Source of the DNA: Candidatus Gastranaerophilales bacterium | GTDB lineage: Bacteria > Cyanobacteriota > Vampirovibrionia > Gastranaerophilales > Gastranaerophilaceae | Direction of reading: 5' to 3' | DNA length: 64,000 nucleotides | NCBI GenBank assembly: GCA_944323475.1 | Contig: CALUSQ010000004.1 | Coordinates: forward strand, 36,270-100,269 | Shown: positions 8,353 to 63,746 of the stretch, one piece after another | How positions within the stretch are numbered: the first letter of the stretch is position 1 | Layout: each line of letters starts with the position of its first letter | Translations under genes and position numbers: made by a program | The notes under the pieces: generated by a model | Told to the model about the DNA's origin: nothing | Database searches by the model: none | What the model saw: only the letters and a program-made list of their open reading frames with translations

Positions 8353-8943
8353 TTGATTTTTGATGATAAAAATTTTGTAGAAAAACTAAACACAACACTC
8401 AAAAATGGCGGCGTTGTTTCTTTTGTTACAGACACGGTTTGGGGTGTTGGGTGTTTGCCAAACTCTGAACAAGGTGTTGAAAAAATTTATGAACTCAAAA
8501 ACCGTGATCGTTCAAAACCTTTGATTTTAATGTCTGACAAAGTAGAACATCTTTTGCCATATGTAAAAAATGTTTCCCCTAAAGCAAAAGATTTGATGAA
8601 AAAACACTTTCCGGGAGCTTTGACATTAATATTTGAAAAAACAGATTTGACGCCTAGTTATATGACTTCATTTAAAAATACTGTAGGCATAAGAGTCCCT
8701 AATAACGAAATATTCAAAAAGCTCTGTGAAGTAGTAGAGGGACATGTCCTTGCGACAACAAGTGCAAACCTTTCTAATCAACCCGCTGCAACTTCTTACC
8801 AAGAAGCTGTCGAAAATGTTGGGAAAAATGTTGACTTTGTTTTTGAAGATTACAATCAAAACTGTCAAGGATTGGCTTCTACTGTTGCATTGGCTATAGA
8901 TGAAAACATAAAAATTCTAAGACAAGGTGAAGTAAAAATTTAA
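8353..8943 (+). CDS. tsaC: L-threonylcarbamoyladenylate synthase (Sua5/YrdC/YwlC family)
   Basis: 196 aa with a TTG start. VSFVTDTVWGVGCLP...KIYELKNRDRSKPLILM and TSANLSNQP are YrdC-domain motifs. Confidence 0.8.
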   Translation: MIFDDKNFVEKLNTTLKNGGVVSFVTDTVWGVGCLPNSEQGVEKIYELKNRDRSKPLILMSDKVEHLLPYVKNVSPKAKDLMKKHFPGALTLIFEKTDLTPSYMTSFKNTVGIRVPNNEIFKKLCEVVEGHVLATTSANLSNQPAATSYQEAVENVGKNVDFVFEDYNQNCQGLASTVALAIDENIKILRQGEVKI

Positions 8944-9914
8944 AGTAAAAATACTACCATTAATGCACCCATCACAAGAGCAGGTCCATATGGCAAAACC
9001 AATGGTTTTTCTCCTTCTTTTATTGATTGCAAAAGCAGTCTGCAACAATGCAGTCCAATACAAGCAACCAATAGATATGCAAACCAATGGAATAAATTTG
9101 AAGTAAAAATATTAAAATATTCGCCTACTGCAAACAAAAATGCTGCAAGGATAAACAAAATTATTGATCCAAACATTTTATAATTTTTATCTTTAAACCA
9201 CTTATACAAAAATACCGGTATAGAAAGCCCACCCCAAATAAATATACTCAAAATCAAAATTACTATGGCATTTGCTATTCCAAAAAATGAACCTAAAGCA
9301 CCTAAAATATAGGCATCTCCTTCACCAAAACATTTCTTTTTTGTGATTAATTTTGCAATAAGAGAAATCAATCCCATCACCGCAAAACCACCAATCAAAC
9401 CCAAAACAGAATGAATGAATGCCTGAAATATAGTTATTTTTAAACCTAAAAACCAAAAAGTAATTTTTGTACTGTCTTCTCCGGCAAAATTAAAAAAATT
9501 GTAAACCAAACCTAATATAATAAGAAAATATGCATGACCATCTAAAATAACTCTTTCTTTAATATCAGTAACAGACATAACAATACACAAAGATAATGCT
9601 GCCATAATAAAAATTGTATTAACAGTCAATCCGTATTTGTAAAAAACACCAGCAAAAACTAAACCTGTAAAAAGTTCTACCAAAGGATACTGTATGCTTA
9701 TTTTTTCATTACAATAACGGCATTTCCCTTTTAAAAATAAATATGAAAGTAACGGTATATTATCGTACCAAGCAAGTTTGTGAGAACACTTTGTACAGTG
9801 AGAAGAAGGCAATACAATAGACTCTCCGGATAAACCTCTTAAAATCACAACATTCAAAAAACTGCCGATACACAAACCTATAATAAAAGCATAAACTATC
9901 CAAAACGTTGTCAT
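8940..9914 (-). CDS. pilD: type IV prepilin leader peptidase / N-methyltransferase (A24 family)
   Basis: 324-aa polytopic ORF. Zinc-ribbon-like CTKCSHKLAWYDNIPLLSYLFLKGKCRYCNEKISIQYPLVELFTG, then GEGDAYILG (second catalytic Asp region). Confidence 0.85.
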   Translation of the reverse strand: MTTFWIVYAFIIGLCIGSFLNVVILRGLSGESIVLPSSHCTKCSHKLAWYDNIPLLSYLFLKGKCRYCNEKISIQYPLVELFTGLVFAGVFYKYGLTVNTIFIMAALSLCIVMSVTDIKERVILDGHAYFLIILGLVYNFFNFAGEDSTKITFWFLGLKITIFQAFIHSVLGLIGGFAVMGLISLIAKLITKKKCFGEGDAYILGALGSFFGIANAIVILILSIFIWGGLSIPVFLYKWFKDKNYKMFGSIILFILAAFLFAVGEYFNIFTSNLFHWFAYLLVACIGLHCCRLLLQSIKEGEKPLVLPYGPALVMGALMVVFLL

Positions 9915-21767: not shown

Positions 21768-22151
21768 ATGAAAGAAGAATACAGCGAAAACTACCGCAGA
21801 TGGTATGACAAAGATCCTCTTTTGTCAAAAACTATGCATACATTGGAAAATTCTGATGATGAAACACAAATTAAAGTTGCATTAAATCTTATCAAAATCT
21901 TGATTGAACACAATATTCAAGAAAATACATTTACAGGCGTAGAAGATATGTTATCAGCTGTAGAAGACGGTCTTGTAGAAAGAGGAAACAACAGATGGTA
22001 TGATTTGGATAGTACTGTTAGAACAGCTATTAACATGTTAGAAAACAGTCCTCTTCCGGTTCAAAAAGCAGTTGCTAAAGAAATGGCAAAAATGGTTGTA
22101 GATAAAATAAAAGAAGACAAAGACGAAGAAGAAGCCGAAGAAGAACTCTAA
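21768..22151 (+). CDS. hypothetical acidic protein (two RWYD motifs, poly-E/D tail)
   Basis: 127-aa ORF with an AGGAGAGAGG RBS upstream. No family recognised. Confidence 0.6.
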   Translation: MKEEYSENYRRWYDKDPLLSKTMHTLENSDDETQIKVALNLIKILIEHNIQENTFTGVEDMLSAVEDGLVERGNNRWYDLDSTVRTAINMLENSPLPVQKAVAKEMAKMVVDKIKEDKDEEEAEEEL

Positions 22152-41444: not shown

Positions 41445-41452
41445 AATTTAAT

Positions 41453-42259: not shown

Positions 42260-42296
42260 TTTATTTGTTTACTTTTAATATCTTATTGTATTAATT

Positions 42297-43679: not shown

Positions 43680-43734
43680 AAATTTCTCTCTTCAAAATAT
43701 GTATAGCTTTATTTTAACATATTATAATTATTAT

Positions 43735-44394
43735 ATGATTAAAATTTTGTCACAATTACTCGATTTGATATATAAAAAGCGTTGTTATTTTTGCGGATGT
43801 TCTAAAGAAAACACAAAAATGTGTTCAAAGTGTTTTCAAAAAATAAAAATTTTACCGTCTAAGATTATTAAAAATATAGATAAAATACCTGTTTATAGTG
43901 CAACAGTGTATGAAAAAGAAGTTCAAAAACTTATAAGAGGCATAAAATATCACAGACAAAAAGAACTTGCTTTTTTTCAAGCCAAAATTATGTATGATTT
44001 TTGGAAAAAATTGTCTATTAGTGAAAACAAGTACACAATTGTCCCTGTCCCTCTTTTTGTTGAAAGAGAAAAAAAGAGAAAATACAATCAAATGGTTCTT
44101 GTTGCACAAGAGTTTTCTAATTTGACAGGTTATGATGTTAATACAAAATTGATAAAACGTGTAAAAAATACAAAACCTCAGTACAAACTTTCTAAAAATG
44201 AGCGTGAAAAAAATCTTAAAGATGCTTTTTTGTGTAATTTAGAAAATTATAACAATGAAAAAATTTTGATAATTGATGATATTCTGACAACAGGCAGTAC
44301 AGCTAAAGAAATAATAAAAACCCTAAAAACAGCCGATTTGAAAGACATAACGGTTTTTGTCACAAGTTGTACAGAATACAATTTGAATTTTTAA
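43735..44394 (+). CDS. comF: ComF-family phosphoribosyltransferase-domain protein
   Basis: The track ORF (43579) overlaps the rseP start; I prefer the ATG at 43735. Zinc-finger-like CYFCG...CSKC and PRTase motif ILIIDDILTTGST. Confidence 0.8.
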   Translation: MIKILSQLLDLIYKKRCYFCGCSKENTKMCSKCFQKIKILPSKIIKNIDKIPVYSATVYEKEVQKLIRGIKYHRQKELAFFQAKIMYDFWKKLSISENKYTIVPVPLFVEREKKRKYNQMVLVAQEFSNLTGYDVNTKLIKRVKNTKPQYKLSKNEREKNLKDAFLCNLENYNNEKILIIDDILTTGSTAKEIIKTLKTADLKDITVFVTSCTEYNLNF

Positions 44395-44395
44395 A

Positions 44396-45823
44396 TTATT
44401 TAAAAAATTCTTTTAATTTTTCAATTTTTTCTTTTGAATCTGACTCAAAGTAAATTCTTAAAAGAGGTTCTGTTCCGCTCGGACGGATGAGAATCCAAGT
44501 TTTTTCATCGTTGAGATAATATTTTACACCATCTTTTGTATCTTTTTCTTTAATACGAAATTCATCTATTTTGTCCAATGATGAATATTTTTGCATTAAT
44601 TCTTTTAATTGAGAATTGTTTTCAAGTTTTACATCGATACGTTCATTAATAAAAGTGCAACCTGCCTTTTGGTGAAGTTCTTCTTGTAATTCCCATAGAG
44701 GTTTATCTTCGTATGCAATCATTTCTAATACAAGCAAATCAGCTAAGATACCGTCTTTTTCCGGGATATGACCTTTAATGCTTAAACCCCCTGATTCTTC
44801 TCCGCCAATGATAGTATCATATTCTCTCATAGCTGCACCTACCCATTTGAAACCTACTGGTGTTTCTATCACATCAATATTGTAGTTTTTAGCTATGATA
44901 TCAAGCATTTGACTTGCACCGACTGTTTTGACAAGTTTTCCGCTATAACCTTTATTTTTAATCAGGTGTCCCAAAAGTAGTGCTATAATTTCATTTGGTG
45001 TTACGTATTCTGCTTTTTCATTTATCACACCAAAACGATCACCATCTCCATCATTGCTTAATCCGATAGCATTAGTTCTTCTTGCAATGGTTAGGATAAG
45101 TTCTTGAAGGTATTTTGCTTTTGGTTCAGGCATGCCTCCGCCAAAATTTGGATCATGTTCCATGTGAAGAGTTTCACAGCTTATGCCGTTTCTTTTTAAA
45201 AGTTCGTCAAAATAACCTATACTTGCGCTGTATAAACCATCATAAATAATTTCACCGTCGTCATCTTCACGTGTAAAATATTCTTTGATTTTTTCAAAAT
45301 CAATAATATTTTCAATATGTTCAAAATAAGGTTCTTTAAAAGATTTTCTTTCTATTTCAAATATTTCTTGAGCATCAAAAGAAATCTCTTTTACATTTTT
45401 TATGTTTTCTACAATAGCATTTGTTATTTCTGTAGTTGCAGGCCCTGCATAGTCTGGAATAAATTTAATTCCCAAATATTCCGGAGGGTTGTGTGATGCA
45501 GTAAACATCATTGCGTTGGCTTTTAAATGTTTTGCATTGTATGCAAGAACAGGAGTTGGAACAACACTTTCGGAAAGTGTGACTTTAAAACCTGCTTTTT
45601 GAAGTATTTGTGCACTTTGCATCGCAAATTCATCAGCTTTGTTTCTTGGGTCATAACCTATTATTATCGGTTTTTTTATTCCATCATTTTTTAGAATATA
45701 TTTTGCAATGGCTTTTGTAACAATTTCAACATTTTCTTTATTAAAATCTTTGCCTACAATAGCTCTCCAGCCGTCCGTACCGAATTTTATCTGTGCAGTG
45801 TCTCCGTCTGATGAATTTGTCAT
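44396..45823 (-). CDS. alpha-D-phosphohexomutase (phosphoglucomutase/phosphomannomutase family)
   Basis: 475 aa. FGTDGWRA, active-site TASHNPPEYLGIK, metal loop SNDGDGDRFG, and GGEESGG. Confidence 0.85.
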   Translation of the reverse strand: MTNSSDGDTAQIKFGTDGWRAIVGKDFNKENVEIVTKAIAKYILKNDGIKKPIIIGYDPRNKADEFAMQSAQILQKAGFKVTLSESVVPTPVLAYNAKHLKANAMMFTASHNPPEYLGIKFIPDYAGPATTEITNAIVENIKNVKEISFDAQEIFEIERKSFKEPYFEHIENIIDFEKIKEYFTREDDDGEIIYDGLYSASIGYFDELLKRNGISCETLHMEHDPNFGGGMPEPKAKYLQELILTIARRTNAIGLSNDGDGDRFGVINEKAEYVTPNEIIALLLGHLIKNKGYSGKLVKTVGASQMLDIIAKNYNIDVIETPVGFKWVGAAMREYDTIIGGEESGGLSIKGHIPEKDGILADLLVLEMIAYEDKPLWELQEELHQKAGCTFINERIDVKLENNSQLKELMQKYSSLDKIDEFRIKEKDTKDGVKYYLNDEKTWILIRPSGTEPLLRIYFESDSKEKIEKLKEFFK

Positions 45824-45900
45824 TTTTTAAACCTTTTTGTACAATAATTTAATTAACAACTATATTATTTTATTCTACCAAAGAAATTGCTGACAGCCAA

Positions 45901-46755
45901 ATGATTGAAATAAATAAACAAATTGATGAAATACTTTTTTTAGGTCCGCAAGGTACATATTGTGAAATGGCAAAAAATCAATTTTGTCTTTATTTAGGTG
46001 AAAAAAATATTGTTCACAAACCGTTTTCTACTGTAAAAAGCATAATAGAATACATTGATGAACACGAAAATGCAGCGGCTGTTATACCGATTGAAAATTC
46101 TGTTGAAGGTATAGTGAGAGAAAGTATAGATAATCTTTTTTCGGTTAAAGATAACAATCTTCAAATTACAGCTGAAACAGTTATTCCTGTAAACCATTGT
46201 TTGATATCAAAAGCAAAAGATATTAATAAAATAAAAAAGATACTTTCACATCCGCAAGCTCTTGCACAGTGTAGAAAATTTTTGTCAAAAACTTTTGATA
46301 ATGTTGAACAAATAGAAAAAGCATCAACAAGCAAAGCAGCAAAAGAACTTTTGGAGCTTGATGAAACTTATGCCGCTATAGCCAATAAAAGATGTGCAGA
46401 GATTTTTGGTTTGAATGTTTTGGCAAAAAATATTAATGACGAAACGGATAACAAAACAAGGTTTATCTTTGTATCTCGTGCAAAAACTACGCCGACTGAT
46501 TCTGACAAAACAAGTATAGCCTTTGTTACTAAAAACACATCAGGTGCGTTGGTAAAGGTTTTGAATGTTTTTGACAGTCTTGATATAAATTTGCTTTATA
46601 TAGATTCAAGACCATCTAAAAAACATCTTGGAGAATATGTATTTTTTACTGATTTTGAGGGACATATCAGCGAAGAACGCTCTCAAAAAGTTTTGGATTT
46701 GATAAAATTGAATACAAATTATATTAAAATTCTTGGTTCTTATAGAAGATTTTAA
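45901..46755 (+). CDS. pheA: prephenate dehydratase (with ACT domain)
   Basis: 284 aa. LGPQGTYCE, NKTRFIFV, and ACT-domain IDSRPSKKHLGEYVFFTDFEGH. Confidence 0.85.
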   Translation: MIEINKQIDEILFLGPQGTYCEMAKNQFCLYLGEKNIVHKPFSTVKSIIEYIDEHENAAAVIPIENSVEGIVRESIDNLFSVKDNNLQITAETVIPVNHCLISKAKDINKIKKILSHPQALAQCRKFLSKTFDNVEQIEKASTSKAAKELLELDETYAAIANKRCAEIFGLNVLAKNINDETDNKTRFIFVSRAKTTPTDSDKTSIAFVTKNTSGALVKVLNVFDSLDINLLYIDSRPSKKHLGEYVFFTDFEGHISEERSQKVLDLIKLNTNYIKILGSYRRF

Positions 46756-46814
46756 AATCCACGTATCAAAATGCTTGTAAATTCCTCCTTTTACATCATT
46801 TCAAAATTTAATGT

Positions 46815-46843
46815 TTGTATAAAAATGATTAAAATTGTATAAT
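46815..46843 (+). promoter_or_regulatory. sigma70-like promoter for atpD-atpC
   Basis: TTGTAT (46815-46820), 17 nt spacer, TATAAT (46838-46843). Confidence 0.5.
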
Positions 46844-46871
46844 TACTATAAGAATTTAAACATAAAGGTAG

Positions 46872-48290
<1,419 letters not shown>

Positions 48291-48320
48291 AAAACGCATA
48301 AGAATCTGTGAAGGTTAAAT

Positions 48321-48725
48321 ATGACAAAAAAAATAAATCTTAAAATAATCACTCATGAAAAAGAAGTCTACAATGATAGAGTTGATGCTATCTACTCTAA
48401 AAGTGTAGAAGGTGAATTTGGTATTTTGCCTGATCACCAACCATTCATGGCAGCGTTAGACATTGGCGTCACTAGAGCTGAAATAGACGGAAAGCAAGAA
48501 GCTTTTACTACCATGGGCGGTATTTTTCAATTTAAAAACAATGAAGCATTGATTTTGACTGATCTTGCAGAAAAAGGTTCTGACATTGATGTAACCAGAG
48601 CAAAATCTGCAAAAGAAAGAGCTGAGGCAAGACTTGGCTCTCATGAAGTTGAAATTGACAATGCCAGAGCTCAAATGGCGCTTGCAAAAGCTATGGCAAG
48701 GCTTAAAGCTGCAAGTCAAAAATAA
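48321..48725 (+). CDS. atpC: F1 ATP synthase epsilon subunit
   Basis: 134 aa directly after atpD. GEFGILPDHQPFM and a helical C-terminal hairpin. Confidence 0.9.
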   Translation: MTKKINLKIITHEKEVYNDRVDAIYSKSVEGEFGILPDHQPFMAALDIGVTRAEIDGKQEAFTTMGGIFQFKNNEALILTDLAEKGSDIDVTRAKSAKERAEARLGSHEVEIDNARAQMALAKAMARLKAASQK

Positions 48726-49730: not shown

Positions 49731-51044
49731 TTATGTATTAAATTCTTTTATCAAATGTTCAATCCAACGGAAAATACTCAAAAGTTCATATGGTTTTGGA
49801 AGATATAAATCTGCTCCTGTATTAAGAATCAATTTTTTGTCATGAATAATTGTAGATAAAATGACTTTTATATCTTTCATTTTTTCTTCATTTTTAATTC
49901 TTTTACAAAAACTTAAACCTTCCAAAGATTCAGCGTCTCCTGCATCAAGAATAATCAATGCCGGTTCAAAAGTTTTTATTAAAGTATAAGAAGATTTGTA
50001 ATCATGAGCAGAAGCAACTTCGTATCCTTGCATTTTTGCAGTAGTTTGCAACAAAAGATTCAAAGCGTCATCAGGTTCTATTATTAAAATTTTATTATTG
50101 TAATTTTTGTTTAAAACAGAATCTTGAGCACTAATTTTTGGTCTTTCAGCAATATAGGCTGATTTTGTTTTCATACTTGCCAATTTACAAGTATTAATCA
50201 ATGCAGACATAGCGTTGCTAACGTTATCATAGTTTTGAGATTCACTGAAAACTATGCCTATAGCTGTTGAAACAAGTTCTATTTTTTTTCCCGCATTATC
50301 ATCACCATAAAGAATAATATATCCTTGTTTTGCATCTTCTTCGTTGTAGAATTTTTCTACAATAGAATCAAAAGCATAAACTAAAAATGAGGCAACATGT
50401 TCTGCTTTTAGCGGATTTGTCAGTATTAAAAATTCACCGTCGGAAAGCTCACCTAAAAAATCGTTTTCATCAAGTGAAGAATTCATTATAGCTGTATATG
50501 TCTGAAGCATTTTGTCAGAAGCCAAATCACCGTATATTTCTCTATATGCTTGAAAATTATTGATTTTTAAAAACATTGCAGCCCATTTTTTGTTTTGAGC
50601 AATTGTTCTTTTAAAGACTCTTAAAGATGATTTAATCTCAGGTAATTGAGTTATTTCATCATTAAGATTTTCAAAATGGCGTCTCAAATGAGCATTTATA
50701 CGTGCTTTAAACTCTTCTGATTCAATAGGTTCGCTCAAAAAATCATCTGCACCTGATTCTAAAACATTCAATTTATCTTGAAGTTCAGAAGATTTTGAAA
50801 GAGCAATTATACAAGGTCTTGATGGATAAGATAACATTCTGAGTTTTTTAATAATATCTGACAAATTAATATCCATACTATCAGATACAATAACCATGTC
50901 AGGTTCATATTCTGTCAGTATTTCCATTGCTGTTTCAAAACTTCCTGTTGAAAGCACACTCGAACCGCTGCTTTCAATGATTTTTTTATATTTTGCAGGT
51001 AATTCTTTTCTTTTATCTAAAATTAATACAAGTTTGGATAACAT
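49731..51044 (-). CDS. response regulator, REC / degenerate GGDEF-like / REC
   Basis: The track ORF extends to 51110. I prefer the ATG at 51044, preceded by GGAGGA and 1 nt after the kinase stop. N-terminal REC-like domain, central domain with GELSDGEFLILT in place of GGDEF, and a C-terminal REC (ILIIEPDD...LIILD...LPKP). Confidence 0.75.
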   Translation of the reverse strand: MLSKLVLILDKRKELPAKYKKIIESSGSSVLSTGSFETAMEILTEYEPDMVIVSDSMDINLSDIIKKLRMLSYPSRPCIIALSKSSELQDKLNVLESGADDFLSEPIESEEFKARINAHLRRHFENLNDEITQLPEIKSSLRVFKRTIAQNKKWAAMFLKINNFQAYREIYGDLASDKMLQTYTAIMNSSLDENDFLGELSDGEFLILTNPLKAEHVASFLVYAFDSIVEKFYNEEDAKQGYIILYGDDNAGKKIELVSTAIGIVFSESQNYDNVSNAMSALINTCKLASMKTKSAYIAERPKISAQDSVLNKNYNNKILIIEPDDALNLLLQTTAKMQGYEVASAHDYKSSYTLIKTFEPALIILDAGDAESLEGLSFCKRIKNEEKMKDIKVILSTIIHDKKLILNTGADLYLPKPYELLSIFRWIEHLIKEFNT

Positions 51045-51045
51045 A

Positions 51046-52050
51046 TTATTTGTCCTCCAATACTTTTTGACTTTGATTTGTATAAGAAGCAGCAGGAAGT
51101 AAAACTTCAAAAACAGAGCCGCTGTTTGGAAGAACTGTAGAGCTTTTTACAAATATTTGTCCACCCATTTTTTCAATAAGGTTTTTAACAATATACAAAC
51201 CAAGTCCGCTGCCTTGAGTTTTTCTGGTTAAATGATTTTCTATTCGTGCAAATTTTTCGAATATTTTTGACAAATTTTCAGGTTCTATACCTACGCCATG
51301 ATCTTCGATTTTTATACTTACAAAATTTTCTTTATGAGTTGAATTTGCAACTAACACTGACACTGTACCTTTTTCGTAAGAATATTTTGCGGCATTGTCT
51401 AAAAGATTTATCATAATTTGTTGGAATTTATTTTCATCAACAAGAATATTCTGAGTATTGTCTTCAACTTTAAGTTCAAAAGGATGGTCAGGGTATTGAT
51501 TTTTGACAAGAGCTATTACTTGTTCAATATGTGTTTTTGGATTGATTGATTTGTATACAAGATTTGATTGTTGAACTTGAATTTTAGAAATAGAAAGCAG
51601 ATTTTCTACGAGTTTAATAAGTCTGTTAGACTGTTCTTTGATTATGGTTAAAAACTTTTGGATTTGGTTTTTATCCAATTTGTCATAAGACATAAGCATT
51701 GTATCTGCAAAACCTCTAATACTTGTTAGAGGTGTTCTTAGTTCATGGCTTACTGTAGATATAAAATCAGAGTATATTTTTTCCATTTGATTATCGATTG
51801 CTGAAAGATAATAATATGAACAAAAATCATCATCATATTTTGAAATTTTGTATGTATAGTTTTTTATATCAACAGTTTCTTTTTTTTCCGGTAAAAAATC
51901 GTAGATATTTTTGTTTTTAAGTGTTTCGCAATTTGTATTGAACAATGAACAGAAAAATGTGTTGGCATAGATTATTTTGTTGTCATAATCTACTGCTATT
52001 ACGGCAGTTTCTAAATTGTCCAAAAGTTTTTTAAAATTTACTTTTTCCAT
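51046..52050 (-). CDS. cytoplasmic PAS-domain sensor histidine kinase
   Basis: 334 aa with no TM segment. H-box FISTVSHELRTPLTSIRGF, N-box NLLDNAAKYS, and G-boxes DHGVGI / GSGLGLYIVK. Confidence 0.85.
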   Translation of the reverse strand: MEKVNFKKLLDNLETAVIAVDYDNKIIYANTFFCSLFNTNCETLKNKNIYDFLPEKKETVDIKNYTYKISKYDDDFCSYYYLSAIDNQMEKIYSDFISTVSHELRTPLTSIRGFADTMLMSYDKLDKNQIQKFLTIIKEQSNRLIKLVENLLSISKIQVQQSNLVYKSINPKTHIEQVIALVKNQYPDHPFELKVEDNTQNILVDENKFQQIMINLLDNAAKYSYEKGTVSVLVANSTHKENFVSIKIEDHGVGIEPENLSKIFEKFARIENHLTRKTQGSGLGLYIVKNLIEKMGGQIFVKSSTVLPNSGSVFEVLLPAASYTNQSQKVLEDK

Positions 52051-52366
52051 ATTTTTATTATAACAATTTTGTTCTGATTTTATACTAACTTAAGCTTTTC
52101 TTAATTTTGTTTTTATACATAAAATATCTTTTTAAAATTACTTTAATGAGGTGATTTATTTGAATTCAAATTTTGTAAAAATAGTAATATATTCCCCACA
52201 AATACAGGTTAAAAAACAGCCTGATTACCCGACTATTATAAAAAGAGAGAAAGTAAAATGAATTTAAACGAAGAATGTTTGCTAAAATACCTTCAAAATC
52301 CGGAAGAGCTCATTGATTTGACCTCTATACTCGTAGATTTTAACATGTTTTTAAATAAAGAAAATT

Positions 52367-54226
52367 ATGAGTGTAATTATGGACAAAATTAAAGAATTTT
52401 TAAAAAATAAAATTTTTTTAAAATATTTTATTTATTCAATATATATACTTGCAACTGTAGGTGTATTGTTTACTTTACTGAGACAACCTGATATAAGAAA
52501 CTTTTTCTCAACAATTGAAAATAAAACTTTTGATGTTCGTCAAAATATATTAGCACCATATAAAAAAGTAAATAAAAATATAGTAATTCTTTCAGTAGAT
52601 GAAGAAAGCTATGAATATCTTTTGGAGAAATACGGTGAATGGCCTATATCAAGAAGCATTTATGCTGATATTATAAAATATTTAGAAAAACAAAAACCCG
52701 CTGTTGTTGCTTTTGATTTAATGTTTGTAAAATCTATAAAAAGTAGTAATGACGCAGATAACAAGTTAGCAAAAAATATAGCTCAATATGATAATGTTTT
52801 TACATCAATTAACTTTGATGACCAATCTTTTGATTTAAGAAAACCGGTCAATTTACCGGATAATATTAAAGCAAAGGTAATAAATGATTCTAATATTAAT
52901 TTTTTAAACGGGAATTTAAAATTTACAAATTGTAGAGCAATTATTAATCAAATTTTATATACAACACCAAATATCGGTCATATAAACTTGATGAGAGGAG
53001 AAGACGGCATAGCCAGAGACATTCCTCCTTTTGTTGTATACAAAAATGATTATTATCCTCATTTGGCTTTGAAAGTTGCTTTAAAATATTTGGAACAAAC
53101 AGAGGGACTTGAACAAAATGAATTTAAAATTGATAAAAATGCTAATCTTACCATAGGGACTAAAACTATTCCTTTAACAGGTAATGGTTCAGTTATTTTG
53201 AACTGGTATGGACCTAGCGGTGTAAATAATTCTTCAGGTTTTGAATATATTCCTATGTGGAAAGTTGAAAAAACAATGTATGAAGGTATGAATTTAATAC
53301 CTCAAAATTATTTTAAAGACAAAATTGTATACATAGGTACAAGTGCAACATCGTTGTTTGATTTGAAAAGTGTACCGACAGATAGAATTTTCCCCGGTGT
53401 TGAAATTCATACTACTTTTGTAAACAACATTATTGATAACAATTTTATAAAAAGAGTTCATCCTTTGACTGATATTGTTATTAGTTTACTTTTAAGTTTA
53501 TTTATTGGACTTATTGTAATAAGAAGTGAATCTACTATATTGTCTTCAATAATTGCTATTTTTACTTCAATAATTTATGCAATTGTTGCAACAATATTGA
53601 TGTATTTCTTTAATATTTGGGTTGGAATTATTCTTCAATTTGTTTCTATATTATTGATATTTATTGCGTGTTATCTTGCAAAATATATTGTTAAATCAAG
53701 AGATTTGGAATATACATATGCTCTTGCTACAACAGATGGTTTGACAGAGCTTTATAATCACAGATATTTTCAAGAACAAATGATTCAAAACATTGAAACA
53801 TCTAAAAGATATAATAAACCATTTTCTCTTATAATGATTGATATAGACTTTTTCAAAAAATTTAATGACAAATATGGCCATCAATCAGGTGATGCTGTTC
53901 TTAGACAAGTTGCAAATATACTAAAAAAGAATGTAAGAAGTTCAGATATTGTTTGCAGATATGGTGGTGAAGAAATGTCTATCATTCTTACACAAACAGG
54001 TCATGAAGAAGCTTTGGTTACAGCTCAAAAAATCTGTAATGCTGTTAGTGAACATCCTCTGAAGCTTGTTAACGGCAATGATGTTAGTGTAACAATAAGC
54101 CTTGGTGTATCAACATTCCCAATGAACGGGGAAACTCCTGCTGATATGATTAAATATGCTGATGATTGTTTGTATAAAGCAAAAGAACACGGTAGAAATC
54201 AAGTTGGAAACCTTGCTAAAGACTAA
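52367..54226 (+). CDS. CHASE2 sensor-domain diguanylate cyclase (GGDEF)
   Basis: 619 aa. N-terminal TM, CHASE2-like VILSVDEESYEYL...GEWPISRSIYADII...VVAFDLMF, three TM helices, then GGDEF with an intact RYGGEEMSII site and DIDFFKKFNDKYGH. Confidence 0.8.
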   Translation: MSVIMDKIKEFLKNKIFLKYFIYSIYILATVGVLFTLLRQPDIRNFFSTIENKTFDVRQNILAPYKKVNKNIVILSVDEESYEYLLEKYGEWPISRSIYADIIKYLEKQKPAVVAFDLMFVKSIKSSNDADNKLAKNIAQYDNVFTSINFDDQSFDLRKPVNLPDNIKAKVINDSNINFLNGNLKFTNCRAIINQILYTTPNIGHINLMRGEDGIARDIPPFVVYKNDYYPHLALKVALKYLEQTEGLEQNEFKIDKNANLTIGTKTIPLTGNGSVILNWYGPSGVNNSSGFEYIPMWKVEKTMYEGMNLIPQNYFKDKIVYIGTSATSLFDLKSVPTDRIFPGVEIHTTFVNNIIDNNFIKRVHPLTDIVISLLLSLFIGLIVIRSESTILSSIIAIFTSIIYAIVATILMYFFNIWVGIILQFVSILLIFIACYLAKYIVKSRDLEYTYALATTDGLTELYNHRYFQEQMIQNIETSKRYNKPFSLIMIDIDFFKKFNDKYGHQSGDAVLRQVANILKKNVRSSDIVCRYGGEEMSIILTQTGHEEALVTAQKICNAVSEHPLKLVNGNDVSVTISLGVSTFPMNGETPADMIKYADDCLYKAKEHGRNQVGNLAKD

Positions 54227-54227
54227 A

Positions 54228-54683
54228 TTAGAAACTTAAAAATCTAAAAAGTTTTTTAATGATTCCTTTTATATTTGATTCATATAGCATAGGATCGTTT
54301 TCATAGTATGGTTTGTATGCATCTATGATATTCTGAGGCAATGGGTTGCCGTCTTTGAAAGTAAAAGCTATTAGCTCCAGCAATTCTATTTGTTGATTGT
54401 TAAATTCTATATTTTTCTTTTTGATATCTTCATCTGCTTCATAATGACAAAGAGCATGCCAAGCAGCATGAATAGATGGATCTTCACAACCTTTTGGAAA
54501 AAGCAAAAGACCGTTTTTTACACTGATTCTTTCTGTCAAAACAGAGATTATTATATTTCCAACATATTTTCTTTGCGCAGCATAATCAACCTCAACAGGT
54601 GTTGAGACTAATTTTTTTTCAATTTTATTTTTAAAAAAAGATTTTATATTTGAAAAAATTATACTAATTCTGCTGTTTTGCAT
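54228..54683 (-). CDS. hypothetical protein co-transcribed with BlaI-like repressor
   Basis: 151-aa ORF overlapping the repressor gene end by 25 nt. Contains HAAWHALCHYE. No family recognised. Confidence 0.5.
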   Translation of the reverse strand: MQNSRISIIFSNIKSFFKNKIEKKLVSTPVEVDYAAQRKYVGNIIISVLTERISVKNGLLLFPKGCEDPSIHAAWHALCHYEADEDIKKKNIEFNNQQIELLELIAFTFKDGNPLPQNIIDAYKPYYENDPMLYESNIKGIIKKLFRFLSF

Positions 54684-55027
54684 TCTCTTTGGATTGCACC
54701 CATGGAAGAAATTGTTTGAACAAGTGAATTCATATCATTGTTGAAATATTGATTTGCTAACTTGCGAATAGCTTGTTGAGCCATTTCATCACGAGATGAA
54801 ACCGTTTTGTAGAAGAATTTTTTTCCTTGTTTGTATCTAACAAGCATGTTTTTTTCTACAAGTCTGTCCATTACGGTTTTTACTGTTGTATATGCTCTTT
54901 TTGTTTTTGACATGTTATTTATAGACTCTTGGACTTCATTTACAGAAACATCATTTTCAGATATTTCTTCAATCATCCAGATAGTTTTCATTATTTCATT
55001 TTCAAGGCTTCCGTGAGAATAATTCAT
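54659..55027 (-). CDS. BlaI/MecI/CopY-family winged-helix transcriptional repressor
   Basis: The track ORF extends to 55105; I prefer the ATG at 55027, preceded by AAGGA. LENEIMKTIW...VNEVQESI...RAYTTVKTVMDRLVEKNMLVRYKQGKKFFY matches the penicillinase-repressor fold pattern. Confidence 0.8.
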   Translation of the reverse strand: MNYSHGSLENEIMKTIWMIEEISENDVSVNEVQESINNMSKTKRAYTTVKTVMDRLVEKNMLVRYKQGKKFFYKTVSSRDEMAQQAIRKLANQYFNNDMNSLVQTISSMGAIQRECKTAELV

Positions 55028-55143
55028 TTTTAATCCTTTATTTATCTTACATACAATTACACTTATAGTAATATAAAACAAAAGAAAATAAAAGATTTTA
55101 GGCATAATTTCCCAAAATTTATTTTATTGTTTTAAAAATACTA

Positions 55144-58174: not shown

Positions 58175-58208
58175 CAAAAAAGGGATGAATTATAATTCAT
58201 CCCTTTTA
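58175..58208 (-). terminator. rho-independent terminator after the 664-aa glycine-rich gene
   Basis: gggatgaatt-at-aattcatccc palindrome (58182-58203), followed on the minus strand by TTTTTTG. Confidence 0.7.
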
Positions 58209-58211
58209 ATT

Positions 58212-60206
58212 TTACCATTCAACGATAACTGCGCCATACCCGCCTTTACCGCCTTTGCTGTATACGCCTGGTGAGTTGCCTGCGTTACCGCCGCCGCCAC
58301 CTGCACCATATGATGTACCGTTACCACCATTTTCTTTACAAATTGCTTTTTGCCATGTGCCTTGACCATCTGATTCTACATTTTTAGTTTTAATATTTTC
58401 TTCACCGCAATCTTTTTCAAATGTTATATTTTCATCACGATAACATACATAGTTATTATAGAAAGTAGAGGCATTATCGTATCCGGAAAATTCTGTTTGA
58501 TCATCATCATCTTCGTTTTCGTGATAAAAATTAGTAATATCTTGATACTTATATGAATATGTCCTTACATTATAATAATTGGCTATGTAGTTAGTTAATT
58601 TTAACAAATAAAAATACTTTCTTGTATCACTATCAGAAGCTAAACCACCATAAACATGCAAAGCTTGTAGAGCAACAGGTTCACTATCATCGATTTTTTG
58701 TTTTAATTCGATTTGGTTCATCATATTATTTGTCCATTCAAAACCTTCTGGTTTTACTCCTTGGTTTTTTTCAAGAACAGCAGAATTATTAGCTTTTGTG
58801 ATTTTACAGATTACTGTTTTGCATTCTTTTACATCTACTTGTACTACTGTTGAACCGGAAACAAACTTTTTAGGTGTGCATTCAGGTGCAGCAGTGCCTC
58901 CACCTTTCATTGTAATTTGTGAGTGTTCTCCAGTTTCAGGTGCAGTAAGAGTTTGGTTTGTTTCTCCTCCTTCACCACCATATCCAACCAAACTGCGACC
59001 GTATATATTACCTTTTTTTATTTGCGCAACAGTTCTACCGCCTTTCTCACCTGAATTAGCAGCATCAGAAATTGTTACTTCCAGAATACCTTCCATAGAA
59101 GGTACAAAGTATGATTGAGGAATTGCAGCATGACCACCTTCACCGAATATTTGCCATGTTTTATAAATTACTCCATAACCACCAATACCATTTTGTTGAT
59201 TAGATTTGCGATAACAAGAACTACCTTGAACACCGCCATCACCGCCGTTTCCATATGTTGTAGGATTATCGTTTGTGTCTCTGTAGTTGTTTTTTCCACC
59301 TCTTGATTGAACACAAGTACCACACCCACCAGCTGTACCTGGTTGTCCTACACCTTTTCTTATAGAACTTGCATATTTGGTTTTACCATTGACTGTAACA
59401 GTATTGTTATAATTAGCTGCTATTACAGAACCTCCGGTACCTCTGCCACCGCCTCTGCAGCTCCATCTTGAACGGCCTATAGAGTCACCGCCTTGACCAC
59501 CAGAAACTGCTATATATGTTGTTTTATCAATATTATCATTGCTGCGTGTAAGTGTTGTTGTACCACCGGTAAGGGCTCTGTTATGGGATGTTGAATCACT
59601 CCAACCACCGTGCCATGTGCCGCCTCTGCTTTGACCGCCGCCACCGACACTTATTGTGTAGCTTGTACCTTGATATAGCGGAATAGTACCTTCAAAAATA
59701 CCGCCGCCGCCACCGCCGCCGCCGCCGTTAGATTTGTGAGCGCTTCTTTTGCCGTTACTGTTATTTTGTCCGCCGCCGCCACCGCCACCGCCGGCAATTA
59801 ACATTACATCATATAAATCTGTTTTTGTTGGTGAAAAAGATGTACTAGTTGTTGTTCTAGCATAGATATCTCTTTTTGATTCTCCATCTCCGCCGCCGCC
59901 GCCGCCGCCAACAACAGTTACAGAATATTTAACAGATTTTTGAGGAGTAAATGTACATTTATTTCCATTTGAGACTGTCCAAGTATCAGGATTATTTTTA
60001 TCTCCTACTGGTCTGTGAGAATCCCAATATACATATTGTCCACTGCTATTTCTTGTACAAATCCATGTACCTTTAGTGCCAAGAGAAGGATCTCTTTTCT
60101 TTTTTGTAATAACAGGGACTGTTGCTAATGTTATTACAGAAATAATCAAAAGAGTAATAAGTGCTTCTGCCAGTGAAAATGCAAAGATTTTTTCTTTTGT
60201 TTTCAT
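58212..60206 (-). CDS. large glycine-rich protein with type IV pilin-like leader and N-terminal helix (long paralogue)
   Basis: 664 aa. MKTKEKIFA|FSLAEALITLLIISVITLATVPVITKKKR has a basic leader, small residue at -1, F+1 and E+5. Then a conserved WICT...CTF module, Gly runs of 7-9, and the C-terminus ...GKGGYGAVIVEW. Confidence 0.8.
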   Translation of the reverse strand: MKTKEKIFAFSLAEALITLLIISVITLATVPVITKKKRDPSLGTKGTWICTRNSSGQYVYWDSHRPVGDKNNPDTWTVSNGNKCTFTPQKSVKYSVTVVGGGGGGGDGESKRDIYARTTTSTSFSPTKTDLYDVMLIAGGGGGGGGQNNSNGKRSAHKSNGGGGGGGGGIFEGTIPLYQGTSYTISVGGGGQSRGGTWHGGWSDSTSHNRALTGGTTTLTRSNDNIDKTTYIAVSGGQGGDSIGRSRWSCRGGGRGTGGSVIAANYNNTVTVNGKTKYASSIRKGVGQPGTAGGCGTCVQSRGGKNNYRDTNDNPTTYGNGGDGGVQGSSCYRKSNQQNGIGGYGVIYKTWQIFGEGGHAAIPQSYFVPSMEGILEVTISDAANSGEKGGRTVAQIKKGNIYGRSLVGYGGEGGETNQTLTAPETGEHSQITMKGGGTAAPECTPKKFVSGSTVVQVDVKECKTVICKITKANNSAVLEKNQGVKPEGFEWTNNMMNQIELKQKIDDSEPVALQALHVYGGLASDSDTRKYFYLLKLTNYIANYYNVRTYSYKYQDITNFYHENEDDDDQTEFSGYDNASTFYNNYVCYRDENITFEKDCGEENIKTKNVESDGQGTWQKAICKENGGNGTSYGAGGGGGNAGNSPGVYSKGGKGGYGAVIVEW
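59890..59909 (-). repeat. perfect (GGC)6 trinucleotide tract encoding poly-Gly; shorter tracts at 59770-59795 and 59701-59727
   Basis: Plus strand reads ccgccgccgccgccgccgcc, which is ~100% GC in an AT-rich genome. Confidence 0.9.
60145..60183. repeat. arm 1 of 39-nt inverted repeat (1 mismatch) shared with 62248-62286
   Basis: The reverse complement reads TGCATTTTCACTGGCAGAAGCACTTATTACTCTTTTGAT. It encodes the AFSLAEALITLLI pilin-like N-terminus. Confidence 0.9.
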
Positions 60207-60285
60207 AAAAACTCCATATATATTAACTAATTTAAAACCAAACTATTCTTATTTAATTTATCTACATAAATTAACATTTCCCTAT

Positions 60286-60314
60286 ATTATACTTCTTTAA
60301 ACTTATTTAAACAA
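60286..60314 (-). promoter_or_regulatory. possible sigma70-like promoter of the 664-aa gene
   Basis: Minus strand: TTGTTT (60314-60309), 17 nt spacer, TATAAT (60291-60286). Confidence 0.4.
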
Positions 60315-60345
60315 ATAAATAATTATTTTTAATTAAATTTAATGA

Positions 60346-61593
60346 TTAATTATTTTGTAAAGATATACCGGCAATATATCCTCCTGACCAACAGTTTTGC
60401 AAATTAAAACCACCTGTTAAACCATCTATATCTATTACTTCACCGCAAAAATACAAATTTGAGACTAGTTTGGATTCAAGTGTTTTGGGATTTATTTCTT
60501 TCAAATCTACCCCGCCTGCTGTTACTATTTCTTCTCCTTTATTTATTCCTGTTGCTAATATCATAAAATCAGTAACTTTTTGAGAAATTTTTTGTCTATC
60601 TAGTTTTGTTAGTTGGCCTGCTTTTGTGGTTGGATTGATGTCTAGCACTTCAAAAATCTTTATTGCTAGATTTTTAGGTAAAAATTCAGCAAGAATATTT
60701 ACAGATTCTTTTTGTGGGTAGGTCTTAAGCTCAGATAAAAATTCTGTATCAAATTGTTCAAAATTTTTGTTTACAAAATTGAAAGAAATTTTTAGAGGAT
60801 TATTTTTGTCAAAATTTAAATAAGCGCAGTAAGAAGAAATTTTGTATACAATAGGCCCTGATATACCTTTATGCGTAAACAAAAAATCACCTTTTACAGG
60901 TTTTTTTAAACATTCATATCTTTTGTTTTTTTCTTTTGATTCTATATCTACTTTTGCCGTAATTTTTTTTAGACTCAAACCGGAAAGAGAGCTAAAATTT
61001 TGCTCTTTTGTAATTAATGAGCTCAATGCAGGTTTTAACTCAATTATATTGTGACCAAGGTTTTTAGCCAGTTTTTGCCCTGTCCCTCTTCCCCCTGTAG
61101 AAATAACTATTTTATCAAATTGATAAGAATTTTTATTTGTTTTTAATTCAAAAAGATTATCAATTTTTTTTATTTCTAATACATTTTCAAAAATTTTTTT
61201 AATATTTTTTTGTTTATTTATTTGTTCTAAAAGAGCAATTTTTACATCTTTTGATGAATTAGTAGTCGGAAAAATTCTTCCATCATCTTGAGTATATGTT
61301 TTTACTCCTATTTGTTCAAAAAAATCCAGAGTTTCTTTTGTTGCAAATTTTGAGAATATGCTATACAAAAACTTTTCACCTGCAGGATAGTTCTTGGCAA
61401 GTTCTTTGTAATCAAATATCGCATTTGCAAGATTACATCTGCCACCACCTGTTGGTAAAAGAGTGTTTAAAATTATATTTTTATCAAAAATAAAAACTTT
61501 ATTTTCTGAATTTTTTGCTGCAAAAATTGCACACATTACACCTGCAGGACCACCGCCTATTATAGCAATCTTAGTCATATATTCTTGCTCCAT
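60346..61593 (-). CDS. HI0933/BaiN-family NAD(P)/FAD-dependent oxidoreductase
   Basis: 415 aa. IIGGGPAGVMCAI, GGGRCNL, and C-terminal GGFNLQNCWSGGY, all typical of this family. Confidence 0.8.
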   Translation of the reverse strand: MEQEYMTKIAIIGGGPAGVMCAIFAAKNSENKVFIFDKNIILNTLLPTGGGRCNLANAIFDYKELAKNYPAGEKFLYSIFSKFATKETLDFFEQIGVKTYTQDDGRIFPTTNSSKDVKIALLEQINKQKNIKKIFENVLEIKKIDNLFELKTNKNSYQFDKIVISTGGRGTGQKLAKNLGHNIIELKPALSSLITKEQNFSSLSGLSLKKITAKVDIESKEKNKRYECLKKPVKGDFLFTHKGISGPIVYKISSYCAYLNFDKNNPLKISFNFVNKNFEQFDTEFLSELKTYPQKESVNILAEFLPKNLAIKIFEVLDINPTTKAGQLTKLDRQKISQKVTDFMILATGINKGEEIVTAGGVDLKEINPKTLESKLVSNLYFCGEVIDIDGLTGGFNLQNCWSGGYIAGISLQNN

Positions 61594-62077
61594 AAAGAAA
61601 AACTTCTTCTACATCTTCAAGATCATCATAAAGCTGAGAAATCGTTTTGTTAAAAACAGGATGATTAAAATCAGGAATTATTTCTAATAAAGGAACAAGA
61701 ACAAAAGCACGTTTATGCATATATTTGTGAGGTATAGTTAACAACTCTGAATTCATAACGACAGAATCATAAAAAATTATATCTATATCAATAGGTCTTT
61801 CACCCCAATGACGTTCTTTTTCCCTATTTCTGCCAAGGGCAGATTCAATCTGATTACATTTAACAAGTAAATCTTCCGGAGAAAGATTTGTTTTGATCTC
61901 TGCAACCATATTTAAAAACCAGTTTTGATCTTTTACTCCCCAAGGCTCTGTTTCATATAAAGATGATGAACGGATTATCTTTATACCCTCAGACAAATCA
62001 AGAAAACTCATTGCTTGTTCAATGAGTTTAAAACTATCTTTTGCATTCGAACCTAAACAAAGATAAGCAATTGACAT
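61571..62077 (-). CDS. folK: 2-amino-4-hydroxy-6-hydroxymethyldihydropteridine diphosphokinase
   Basis: 168 aa. AYLCLGSN, SSLYETEPWG, GERPIDIDII, IPHKYMHKRAFVLVPL. Confidence 0.9.
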   Translation of the reverse strand: MSIAYLCLGSNAKDSFKLIEQAMSFLDLSEGIKIIRSSSLYETEPWGVKDQNWFLNMVAEIKTNLSPEDLLVKCNQIESALGRNREKERHWGERPIDIDIIFYDSVVMNSELLTIPHKYMHKRAFVLVPLLEIIPDFNHPVFNKTISQLYDDLEDVEEVFLYGARIYD

Positions 62078-62142
62078 GATAATTATTATTATAATTCTTT
62101 TTTGTTGTTACAACAATTTTTAATTTAAAAAGTTGATTTTTA

Positions 62143-62172
62143 TTGCTTGAAACAGTCTTTATCGGTTATAAT
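62143..62172 (+). promoter_or_regulatory. possible sigma70-like promoter of the 491-aa gene
   Basis: TTGCTT (62143-62148), 18 nt spacer, TATAAT (62167-62172). Confidence 0.4.
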
Positions 62173-62221
62173 TGTGTAGTTATATAAGAATTTTTAATTT
62201 ATTAATTTATATGGGGTTTTT

Positions 62222-63697
62222 ATGAAAAAGACAACAATAAATATTTCTGCATTTTCATTGGCAGAAGCACTTATTACTCTTTTGATAGTTGCTTTGATTT
62301 CTCTTGCAACTATTCCTGTAATAACTAAAAAAGCAAGAAAAGAAGAAAACCATGGCAAATGGATTTGTACACTCAATAGTGCAGGTCAACATATTCAATG
62401 GAATACAGGTGCCTCAGGAGATGCAAATAATCCGACAACATGGGCTGTTTCAGGAAACAGCTGTACATTCCAAGTTCCATCAGGAGCAAGAAACTTTGCT
62501 ATCACGGCAGTTGCTGGCGGTGGCGGCGGTGCAGGTGCACAATACCAAAATAAATCTTGGACTTCAGACTTTGCTGTAACTTACTATGGTAGTTATAGAA
62601 TGGCTGCTATTGGTGGTGGTGGTAGTGGTGGTCTTCAAGATGGTCTTGCCAATTGTAATCCCAGAGGTGGTGGTGCTGGTGGAGTTGGTTATGCAGCTTT
62701 TGATATAGATGAAAGTACTACACAAATAAAAATATCTTCTGGTCGTGGTGGTGATACAAGTAACCATAATGGTAAAAAAGGTGGTGATTCTGTTATTACA
62801 AGAGTTTACACTAATACTACCACTGGTGCGGCAAATCAAACAGAAGATTTAATTGTTGCGCATGGCGGTAATGGTGGTCATAGAACATATACGGTAGTTT
62901 TTAGTTGTCAAAATGGAGAAGGCAATGGAAAAATGGGGACCGTTTCTTTTGCTTCAAGTGCAATAAGTCCAAGAACCGTAAATACATCTTATGGGAACGG
63001 TGGACTTGGTGGAAGAGGCGATATTAGTTTTGGATATATTCCTTATTCTGATATGGAAAATGTAAATAATTTTATGAAGCCATATACTGTTATGACAGAT
63101 ACGCCAAGATACTATAGTTCTAAACAAATGTATACTAATTTAACAGGAAGAGGAGGAAATCCTCAAACTGCTTCTGGTTGGCAAGGAAGAGCCGGAAATG
63201 ATGGTGCAGCGATGGTTTCAACAGAAATATATTGGTCTGGTGGCGGAGGTAAAGCAGGAAATTATAAAATTAGAGATTTTTATCCGTCTTTTGACAAAAA
63301 GAAACTTACAATTACAGTAGGTAAAGGTGGCAAAGGAGGCAATGCAGGTACTTCTTCGGGCGGTTATGCAACAAAAGGTTCTGATGGCGGCGCAACTGTG
63401 ATAGATGACTTGTATGGTTTACCCGGAGGCAAAGGCGGTGAACTGAAATATCAAGAAAAAGCATATTCAGATACATCAGGTGAAGACGGTGAAAAAACAC
63501 CTCTTTATTACAAAAACGAACCGGTATTAGGTTATGGCGGTTTGTCAGGTACAAATTCAAATGTAAACGGAATGACCAGTGCAGGATATGGTGCCGGTGG
63601 TGGAGGTGCTGGTATTAAACATGGTACATATTTAGGTACTGCCAATGCTGGTAAAGGCGGAGATGGTGCTCCTGGTTATGTTCTTATAGAATGGTAA
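62222..63697 (+). CDS. large glycine-rich protein with type IV pilin-like leader and N-terminal helix (short paralogue)
   Basis: 491 aa. MKKTTINISA|FSLAEALITLLIVALISLATIPVITKKARK, a WICT...CTF module, AVAGGGGGAG and many G-rich blocks, and the C-terminus ...GKGGDGAPGYVLIEW. Confidence 0.8.
   Translation: MKKTTINISAFSLAEALITLLIVALISLATIPVITKKARKEENHGKWICTLNSAGQHIQWNTGASGDANNPTTWAVSGNSCTFQVPSGARNFAITAVAGGGGGAGAQYQNKSWTSDFAVTYYGSYRMAAIGGGGSGGLQDGLANCNPRGGGAGGVGYAAFDIDESTTQIKISSGRGGDTSNHNGKKGGDSVITRVYTNTTTGAANQTEDLIVAHGGNGGHRTYTVVFSCQNGEGNGKMGTVSFASSAISPRTVNTSYGNGGLGGRGDISFGYIPYSDMENVNNFMKPYTVMTDTPRYYSSKQMYTNLTGRGGNPQTASGWQGRAGNDGAAMVSTEIYWSGGGGKAGNYKIRDFYPSFDKKKLTITVGKGGKGGNAGTSSGGYATKGSDGGATVIDDLYGLPGGKGGELKYQEKAYSDTSGEDGEKTPLYYKNEPVLGYGGLSGTNSNVNGMTSAGYGAGGGGAGIKHGTYLGTANAGKGGDGAPGYVLIEW
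62248..62286. repeat. arm 2 of 39-nt inverted repeat
   Basis: TGCATTTTCATTGGCAGAAGCACTTATTACTCTTTTGAT. It has a single C/T difference from the reverse complement of 60145-60183. Confidence 0.9.
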
Positions 63698-63716
63698 TTG
63701 AACTTTTAAATTTATG

Positions 63717-63746
63717 AAAAGGGTGATTTTAGTCACCCTTTTTTTG
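63717..63746 (+). terminator. rho-independent terminator after the 491-aa gene
   Basis: gggtga (63721-63726) pairs with tcaccc (63733-63738), followed by T7. Confidence 0.7.

Follow-up and report, generated by a model that had tools for sequence, protein, structure and literature searches.

The 64,000 nt window analysed here (positions 36,270 to 100,269 of contig CALUSQ010000004.1, from a Candidatus Gastranaerophilales bacterium) contains two open reading frames (ORFs), A (664 amino acids (aa), minus strand) and B (491 aa, plus strand), which encode proteins with pilin-like N-termini and glycine-rich bodies. Both ORFs are present exactly where the original prediction placed them (Table 1). 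The architecture of each protein is strongly supported: a class III signal peptide and a hydrophobic helix of about 21 residues are followed by one to three modules of the Gly_rich_2 type, also called TG (TNF-like plus glycine-rich) modules. The description of the pair as giant was an overstatement, as proteins of 491-664 aa are large only by the standard of pilins. An HI0933-like flavoprotein gene and the HPPK gene (folK) lie between A and B; of the proposed divergent arrangement around these two genes, the part concerning B stands, whereas A is transcribed in the same direction as both and lies downstream of them.

A and B are paralogues. BLASTP aligns their first ~100 residues at 55% identity (E 3e-27); past this region their relatedness is at the profile level only, where both match the Pfam family PF21722 (Gly_rich_2). 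The features that they share go beyond chance, with the N-terminal motif, the proline at position +22 and the C-terminal tryptophan recurring in about 250 homologues. The N-termini, the internal YGNGG(D/L)GG motif (YGNGGDGG at A318 and YGNGGLGG at B257) and the glycine runs, the longest having nine residues (A161-169), are found as quoted in the original prediction. The common C-terminal end is also found, in a looser form than the proposed V-x-IEW, since A ends in AVIVEW and B in YVLIEW, giving the pattern V-x-[IV]-E-W. Nearly all family members end at this tryptophan (G-x-V-x-[IV]-[EQKT]-W-stop; 58215-58232 in A and 63677-63694 in B), and the segment G-x-V-x-[IV]-x-W is where the PF21722 profile stops and where the structural models have their last strand. 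The ribosome-binding region TATATGGrGTTTTTATG precedes both genes, and their translation-initiation regions form an inverted repeat (I2) with 87% complementarity. A six-frame scan of the window finds A and B as its only two N-termini of this type.

The reading of these N-termini as class III prepilin signals draws support from a motif found across the family, from the pilD gene in the window, whose identity is borne out by its PF06750 and PF01478 matches, and from a PilT-family ATPase gene nearby. Both proteins begin with a short basic leader; the junctions read from the sequence, with a slash at the predicted cleavage point, are MKTKEKIFA/FSLAE in A and MKKTTINISA/FSLAE in B. The motif [G/A]-F-[STA]-[LIMV]-x-E is carried by 247 of the 262 family proteins, with glycine (135 proteins) or alanine (112 proteins) at position -1, and 239 of these 247 also have the helix-kinking proline at +22. 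The spacing of Glu+5 and Pro+22 is that of classical type IV pilins. Because glycine and alanine interchange freely between close relatives, the alanine at -1 in A and B is probably tolerated; PilD-type peptidases reportedly accept alanine at this position, according to the Pseudomonas mutagenesis literature. Further, the N_methyl model PF07963 is matched at E<=0.01 in 27 of 58 relatives, and one paralogue (locus L029) exceeds the cut-offs of both curated models (23.8 bits for PF07963 and 16.5 bits for TIGR02532). NCBIfam models give weak, sub-threshold, in-register matches to ComGC and ComGE at the N-termini, while the family profile, searched against PDB sequences, gives a weak in-register match to the geopilin N-terminus. 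In the structural models, the helix spans residues 12-29 of A and 13-35 of B, so that about 25 mature residues into the protein, at residue 29-35, it gives way to a basic, low-confidence linker and then to the strands of the TG module.

The same N-terminus is found in the same lineage on proteins of 180-240 aa without glycine enrichment, which are probably the lineage's ordinary pilins; family searches with these proteins return no match except weak, ComG-type, N-terminal ones. Their genes occur at loci L051-L074 (for example, L063 9986-10654 and L051 9983-10522), with N-termini of the form [G/A]FSLAEALITLLIV...P..TKK.

The glycine-rich parts of A and B score 46.8 and 50.6 bits against PF21722 (cut-off 24.3 bits), with several stretches matched in each protein, and the same family is matched in 56 of 58 relatives. 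The original prediction had considered this part a possible beta-solenoid or else unassignable; it is instead assigned to Gly_rich_2 by Pfam and to the TG fold of LTK/ALK, which receptor-binding domains of phage tail fibres also have, by structure comparison, and these searches rule out a beta-solenoid. AlphaFold2 models built with family alignments have a mean predicted local distance difference test score (pLDDT) of 89.5 and a predicted template modelling score (pTM) of 0.79 for B, and 87.2 and 0.77, respectively, for A. When compared with the PDB by Foldseek, both models return the TG domain of LTK/ALK, the fibre protein gp24 of cyanophage Pam3 and the tail tip chains of phage Bxb1, with probabilities of 0.93-1.0 for entries 7NX1, 7NX0, 7LS0, 7YPX and 9D93. 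Among predicted viral structures (BFVD), there are 158 matches at E<=1e-3, including glycine-rich domain proteins, minor tail proteins and tail fibres of tailed phages, as well as giant virus proteins. In the PHROGs collection, residues 51-110 of B match phrog_863 (tail category, 'tail fiber assembly'; E 2e-19). A profile search against PDB sequences returned no match for the glycine-rich part.

Within this fold, the cysteine-containing module that the original prediction had noticed, followed by SVTVVGGGGGGG, is present and can now be placed: it is the start of the TG domain, whose strands (C49 and C81 in B) lead into the first glycine run. C81 and G100-103 are invariant in the conservation analysis of B, and C49 is nearly so. 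An HHalign comparison of the two halves of B (probability 91%) points to two tandem modules, the second of which is 89-95% identical between alleles. In A, the cysteine-containing insert at residues ~445-620 has no family match and is covered by no PDB fold match; it is also the least conserved part of the protein, with homologue identities of 6-40% over residues 451-570. Most positions in the glycine runs have a pLDDT of 84-97 and are neither helix nor strand according to DSSP, while the block with the YGNGG motif is lower (72). As modelled, the runs are compatible with polyglycine-II helices.

Two findings are new in this analysis, namely a third paralogue near B and a hypervariable cassette within B. 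The cassette was recognised by comparing DNA with the syntenic loci L078 and L079 on conspecific contigs from other samples, where its counterparts are at 6300-7050 and 6300-7020, respectively. Identity falls to 75-80% over 62521-62670 and to 48-69% over 62671-63270, whereas the flanking DNA is mostly 97-100% identical, apart from a small number of 150-nt blocks at 83-95%, and gene A keeps 92-100% identity at the same loci. At the protein level, four B alleles are mutually 36-54% identical over residues 121-340 and 89-100% identical on either side. Such a pattern is typical of proteins that are exposed and subject to diversifying selection or allelic replacement. A silent-cassette (pilS-like) source or a template repeat was also considered: a repeat search and blastn with three alleles found no donor copy in the window or in the other retrieved loci, the DNA to which the search was confined.

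The third paralogue shares its N-terminus and ribosome-binding region with A and B and matches PF21722; the upstream likeness among the three genes consists of the ribosome-binding site and an AT-rich spacer. The genes for EF-P, accB, accC and leuS lie between B and this copy, so that A, B and the third paralogue make up a loose cluster interleaved with housekeeping genes. Paralogues elsewhere, which the original prediction had proposed to look for, turned up as a large family. In word-indexed searches, B has 128 relatives and A has 76, and an exhaustive profile search, counted as clusters at 50% identity, found 158 at E<=1e-30 and 754 at E<=1e-10. Almost all organism labels are metagenome-assembled genomes (MAGs) of Candidatus Gastranaerophilales or Candidatus Limenecus, a restriction to be read with the scan pattern in mind, as this was the lineage's own N-terminal peptide. 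The few loci labelled Clostridium sp., Muribaculaceae, Lachnospiraceae or Clostridia are probably binning or labelling errors. Gastranaerophilales and Limenecus are non-photosynthetic Melainabacteria of animal guts. There are many paralogues per genome; Ca. Limenecus avicola, for example, has at least seven such loci. In other Gastranaerophilales MAGs, three or four paralogues stand in tandem (L005 8323-13064; L009 6512-11365; L029 9965-14880; L054 5378-15500), and a PilZ-domain gene and a TPR gene are located a few kb upstream of the L029 array. In databases, the family is named only 'hypothetical protein' or 'Glycine-rich domain-containing protein'; PF21722 is mentioned in no paper found, and literature searches on pilin with polyglycine and on Gastranaerophilales with pili returned nothing about this family.

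Table 1. Features of genes A and B and of associated genes. Coordinates refer to the window unless another contig is given.
Feature	Coordinates	Strand	Description
Gene A	58212..60206	minus	ORF, 664 aa; class III signal peptide and alpha1N helix first, then Gly_rich_2 modules, Cys-rich alpha/beta insert and terminal Gly-rich strand ending VIVEW
A residues 1-35	60102..60206	minus	leader MKTKEKIFA, predicted cleavage between A9 and F10, Glu14 (+5), hydrophobic helix, Pro31 (+22), then TKKKR
A residues 120-350	59157..59849	minus	best Gly_rich_2 stretch, profile positions 5-224 of 226; Gly runs 139-146 and 161-169
A residues ~445-620	58347..58874	minus	Cys-containing alpha/beta insert, ~175 residues, modelled with good confidence
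Translation-initiation region of A	60207..60237	minus	TATATGGAGTTTTTATG; conserved, common to B and the third paralogue (alignment)
Terminator-like hairpin of A (intrinsic type)	58178..58207	minus	directly 3' of the A stop codon; 13 pairs, then T-run
Gene B	62222..63697	plus	ORF, 491 aa; class III signal peptide and alpha1N helix, two tandem Gly_rich_2 modules, end YVLIEW
B residues 1-35	62222..62326	plus	leader MKKTTINISA, predicted cleavage between A10 and F11, Glu15 (+5), Pro32 (+22), then TKKARK
B first module, residues ~46-270	62357..63031	plus	C49/C81 strands, strand into first Gly run (99-105), further Gly blocks
B second Gly_rich_2 module, residues ~329-491	63206..63694	plus	best Pfam stretch 339-483
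Strain-level hypervariable cassette, B residues ~100-350	62521..63270	plus	DNA comparison with syntenic loci L078 and L079
Translation-initiation region of B	62191..62221	plus	TATATGGGGTTTTTATG; conserved
Terminator-like hairpin of B (intrinsic type)	63716..63743	plus	3' of B
HI0933-like flavoprotein gene	60346-61593	minus	between A and B
HPPK/folK	61571-62077	minus	between A and B
pilD, prepilin peptidase / N-methyltransferase	8940..9914	minus	PF06750 E 2.4e-36; PF01478 35.1 bits (cut-off 26.5)
PilT/PilU-family type IVa ATPase	L081 13257-14327		356 aa; conspecific contig, ~2.6 kb left of window position 1; TIGR01420 507.7 bits
Third paralogue	L075 10001-11794 (ERZ28614114 scaffold_41)		597 aa; ~6.3 kb downstream of B (63697), just past the window end

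Taken together, these results favour, at a probability of roughly 55%, the interpretation that A and B are modular proteins resembling minor pilins, which belong to a type IV filament system and display phage-fibre-type binding modules. Their most likely role is that of pilus-borne adhesins, an idea already put forward in the original prediction, of which the prepilin N-terminus is now supported and the display on pili is what we infer. In the proposed mechanism, A and B would insert in the inner membrane with the N-terminus inside, and PilD, the presumed processing enzyme, would cut before Phe+1 and then methylate it. The alpha1N helix would be the sole assembly interface through which the type IV pilus machinery lifts the protein into the filament core. 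A tip location is the most plausible, since the shaft would not accommodate a 45-70 kDa module. The glycine-rich modules would then be shown outside the cell as ligand-binding heads, as on a phage fibre docked through its N-terminal helix, and the many paralogues, together with the replaceable B cassette, may give the bacterium a range of binding or antigenic specificities in the gut. The variability of the cassette within a 97-100% identical background and the conserved cysteines of the proteins are consistent with such exposure. The original prediction had treated a match to phage structural proteins as a possible objection to an adhesin; such a match was found, yet it leaves the idea unrefuted and supplies it with a mechanism.

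Modular pilins are an established concept, and 264 architectures are reported (PMC8179133). The closest parallels described there are Streptococcus sanguinis PilB (with a vWA module) and PilC (with a lectin module), which, like A and B, combine a class III signal and alpha1N with a short linker and a bulky ligand-binding module; the mature sizes are similar (~50 kDa), and a role as tip adhesin is proposed for both systems. A and B differ in having a TG (Gly_rich_2) module, which is not among the architectures named in the available part of that source, and in carrying it in tandem copies. Their pilin module is reduced to the signal peptide and alpha1N, with the functional module and linker present. 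Unlike the S. sanguinis genes, those of the A/B family are scattered among housekeeping genes, with many paralogues per genome. A second set of parallels comprises CofB of enterotoxigenic Escherichia coli, TcpB of Vibrio cholerae and GspK of type II secretion, which are also several-fold larger than major pilins and are thought to be located at the tip, but which keep a complete pilin domain and carry unrelated extra domains (general background and the discussion in PMC8179133). No pilin appears in a survey of polyproline-II bundle domains.

For the modules themselves, the closest comparisons are Pam3 gp24 (PDB 7YPX, PMC9608196) and the Bxb1 tail tip (9D93), which share the module fold with a Foldseek probability of 1.0. 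The logic of gp24 is close to that proposed for A and B, with an N-terminal helix docked in a filamentous carrier and a glycine-rich head at the distal end, and in phage fibres, as in B, variability is concentrated in part of the head. However, the helix of A and B is a hydrophobic, pilin-type alpha1N with a PilD cleavage motif, whereas that of the phage fibres is a trimerising coiled coil on the baseplate; moreover, A and B lie in a chromosomal housekeeping context, and the likeness is at the profile or fold level only. The TG supradomain of the receptor tyrosine kinases ALK and LTK (PDB 7NX1, 7LS0 and 7MZY) matches both models at the fold level; it is extracellular and binds ligands, and the glycine runs of A and B are likewise predicted, with high confidence, to be ordered without being alpha or beta. 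A and B differ from ALK/LTK in their bacterial host, pilin-helix anchor and two tandem modules, while sequence homology is undetectable and the TM-scores (template modelling scores) are 0.13-0.28.

Evidence on the pilus machinery is partial. The PilT/PilU-family ATPase gene lies on a contig that is tied to the window by an identical permease in the same gene order; it stands isolated between glycogen-synthase-like and DAHP synthase genes. A second PilT-like gene occurs in a related MAG, and a Walker-motif scan of all loci detected a single PilT-like gene. Besides pilD, there are no pilus genes among the scanned ORFs of the window, eight ORFs (40569-48725) lying outside the scan. In Ca. Gastranaerophilus termiticola, pilA, pilB, pilC, pilT and pilD are reported (PMC5877343).

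Several observations count against a filament-borne adhesin. PilB, PilC and the secretin PilQ were not found in the ~95 kb of DNA read, and at every locus examined the A/B-type genes are situated among housekeeping genes rather than beside pilus genes. The curated prepilin models fall short, as B reaches 10.4 bits against PF07963 (cut-off 21.2 bits), A has no match to it, and neither protein reaches the cut-off of TIGR02532. The pilin head, in which alpha1C packs on an antiparallel beta-sheet, is absent from both AlphaFold2 models, and the proteins thus differ from characterised modular pilins, which have this small domain between helix and module. The helix is followed by the basic cluster TKK[KA]R, which could just as well be a membrane-retention signal. 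Finally, the Foldseek TM-scores are low (0.13-0.44; 0.2-0.44 when normalised by the target), which is expected from the multi-domain nature of the proteins and from glycine-rich lattices that differ from one protein to another.

The main rival, somewhat improbable on balance, is that A and B are membrane-tethered and not polymerised: the class III signal would serve export and PilD processing, and the modules would be periplasmic or surface binding domains, as in a bindosome. In Sulfolobus, class III signals are carried by non-pilin, sugar-binding proteins of the bindosome. The missing pilin head, the conserved basic cluster after the helix and the lack of linkage to pilus genes all fit a tether, but the strain-level hypervariability of B is more typical of externally exposed proteins, and Pro+22 is conserved with the full alpha1N signature, which matters more for filament packing than for anchoring. 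In addition, the known roles of the module are at the outermost tips of phage fibres, and in a cell with two membranes an inner-membrane protein would be unable to reach external ligands.

It is unlikely that A and B belong to another type IV filament, such as a Com-like competence pilus or a type II secretion pseudopilus, in which the module would bind DNA or a secreted partner. ComGC, ComGE and ComGD are the only named families matched at the N-termini, all below cut-off, and the motif I-P-V-I-T-K-K is similar to the P-N-[IV]-T-K of ComGC; however, these matches span only the generic alpha1N region, the nearby ATPase is of the type IVa PilT/PilU family, the DNA read yielded no Com or Gsp genes, and the characterised relatives of the module bind cell-surface receptors or peptide ligands rather than DNA. 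Least credible is an origin of A and B as phage tail-fibre or tailocin receptor-binding genes, now domesticated or remnant, with an incidental pilin-like N-terminus: the PHROG, BFVD and PDB matches to phage tail, fibre and glycine-rich domain proteins would suit such an origin, but tblastn against 50,697 phage genomes gave none at E 1e-3, the neighbours are housekeeping genes in an order conserved across strains, no phage structural genes were detected nearby, the N-terminal signature is kept in about 250 homologues, and the homologues with organism names are chromosomal genes of one bacterial lineage. A recent phage origin was rejected on the empty tblastn search together with the housekeeping context.

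The window has a G+C content of ~31% and carries housekeeping genes (mur genes, ftsW, dnaN, recJ, smc, glyQ and prfA) as well as genes for several GGDEF proteins. The genes for HPPK, the flavoprotein, adenine deaminase, EF-P, AccB/AccC and LeuS keep the same order in at least four samples, and the neighbourhoods of L029 and L021 also consist of housekeeping genes. A signalling cluster at 49731-54226, 4-8 kb from A, encodes a GGDEF response regulator, a PAS histidine kinase and a CHASE2-GGDEF diguanylate cyclase; cyclic-di-GMP is a frequent regulator of pili and adhesion. A flagellin gene (Flagellin_N and Flagellin_C) is located at 35107-36015, suggesting that the organism probably has flagella besides type IV pilus components. 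The ORFs at 26537-27766 (409 aa) and 21768-22151 (127 aa) match no Pfam family at 1e-5, and that at 54228-54683 (151 aa), which overlaps the end of a BlaI/Penicillinase_R-type repressor gene (54659-55105), matches none at 1e-3.

If A and B are indeed modular pilins, the catalogue of such proteins would gain a new module with a rare fold, TG, characterised in phage fibre tips and in ALK/LTK, and a large binding head would be attached to a type IV filament through alpha1N alone. A bolder form of this interpretation, offered tentatively, is that Gastranaerophilales mount phage-tail-fibre-type (ALK-like, polyglycine) heads on a bare pilin helix as interchangeable pilus-tip specificities, with B diversified between strains by replacement of its central cassette. 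If true, pili would here offer a counterpart to the switching of host range by phages, the fold of phage fibres and ALK/LTK receptors would have a bacterial cellular home, and modules may have been exchanged between the receptor-binding proteins of phages and the pilins of bacteria. Further, the B cassette marks a place where diversifying pressure is strong, be its source phage, host immunity or variation in the ligand, and could be used as a strain marker, while the soluble modules may offer tractable bacterial models for polyglycine-II architecture. Overall, a pilus-borne role for A and B would provide a testable handle on how an uncultured and widespread gut lineage (Melainabacteria/Gastranaerophilales) may adhere to host or microbial surfaces.

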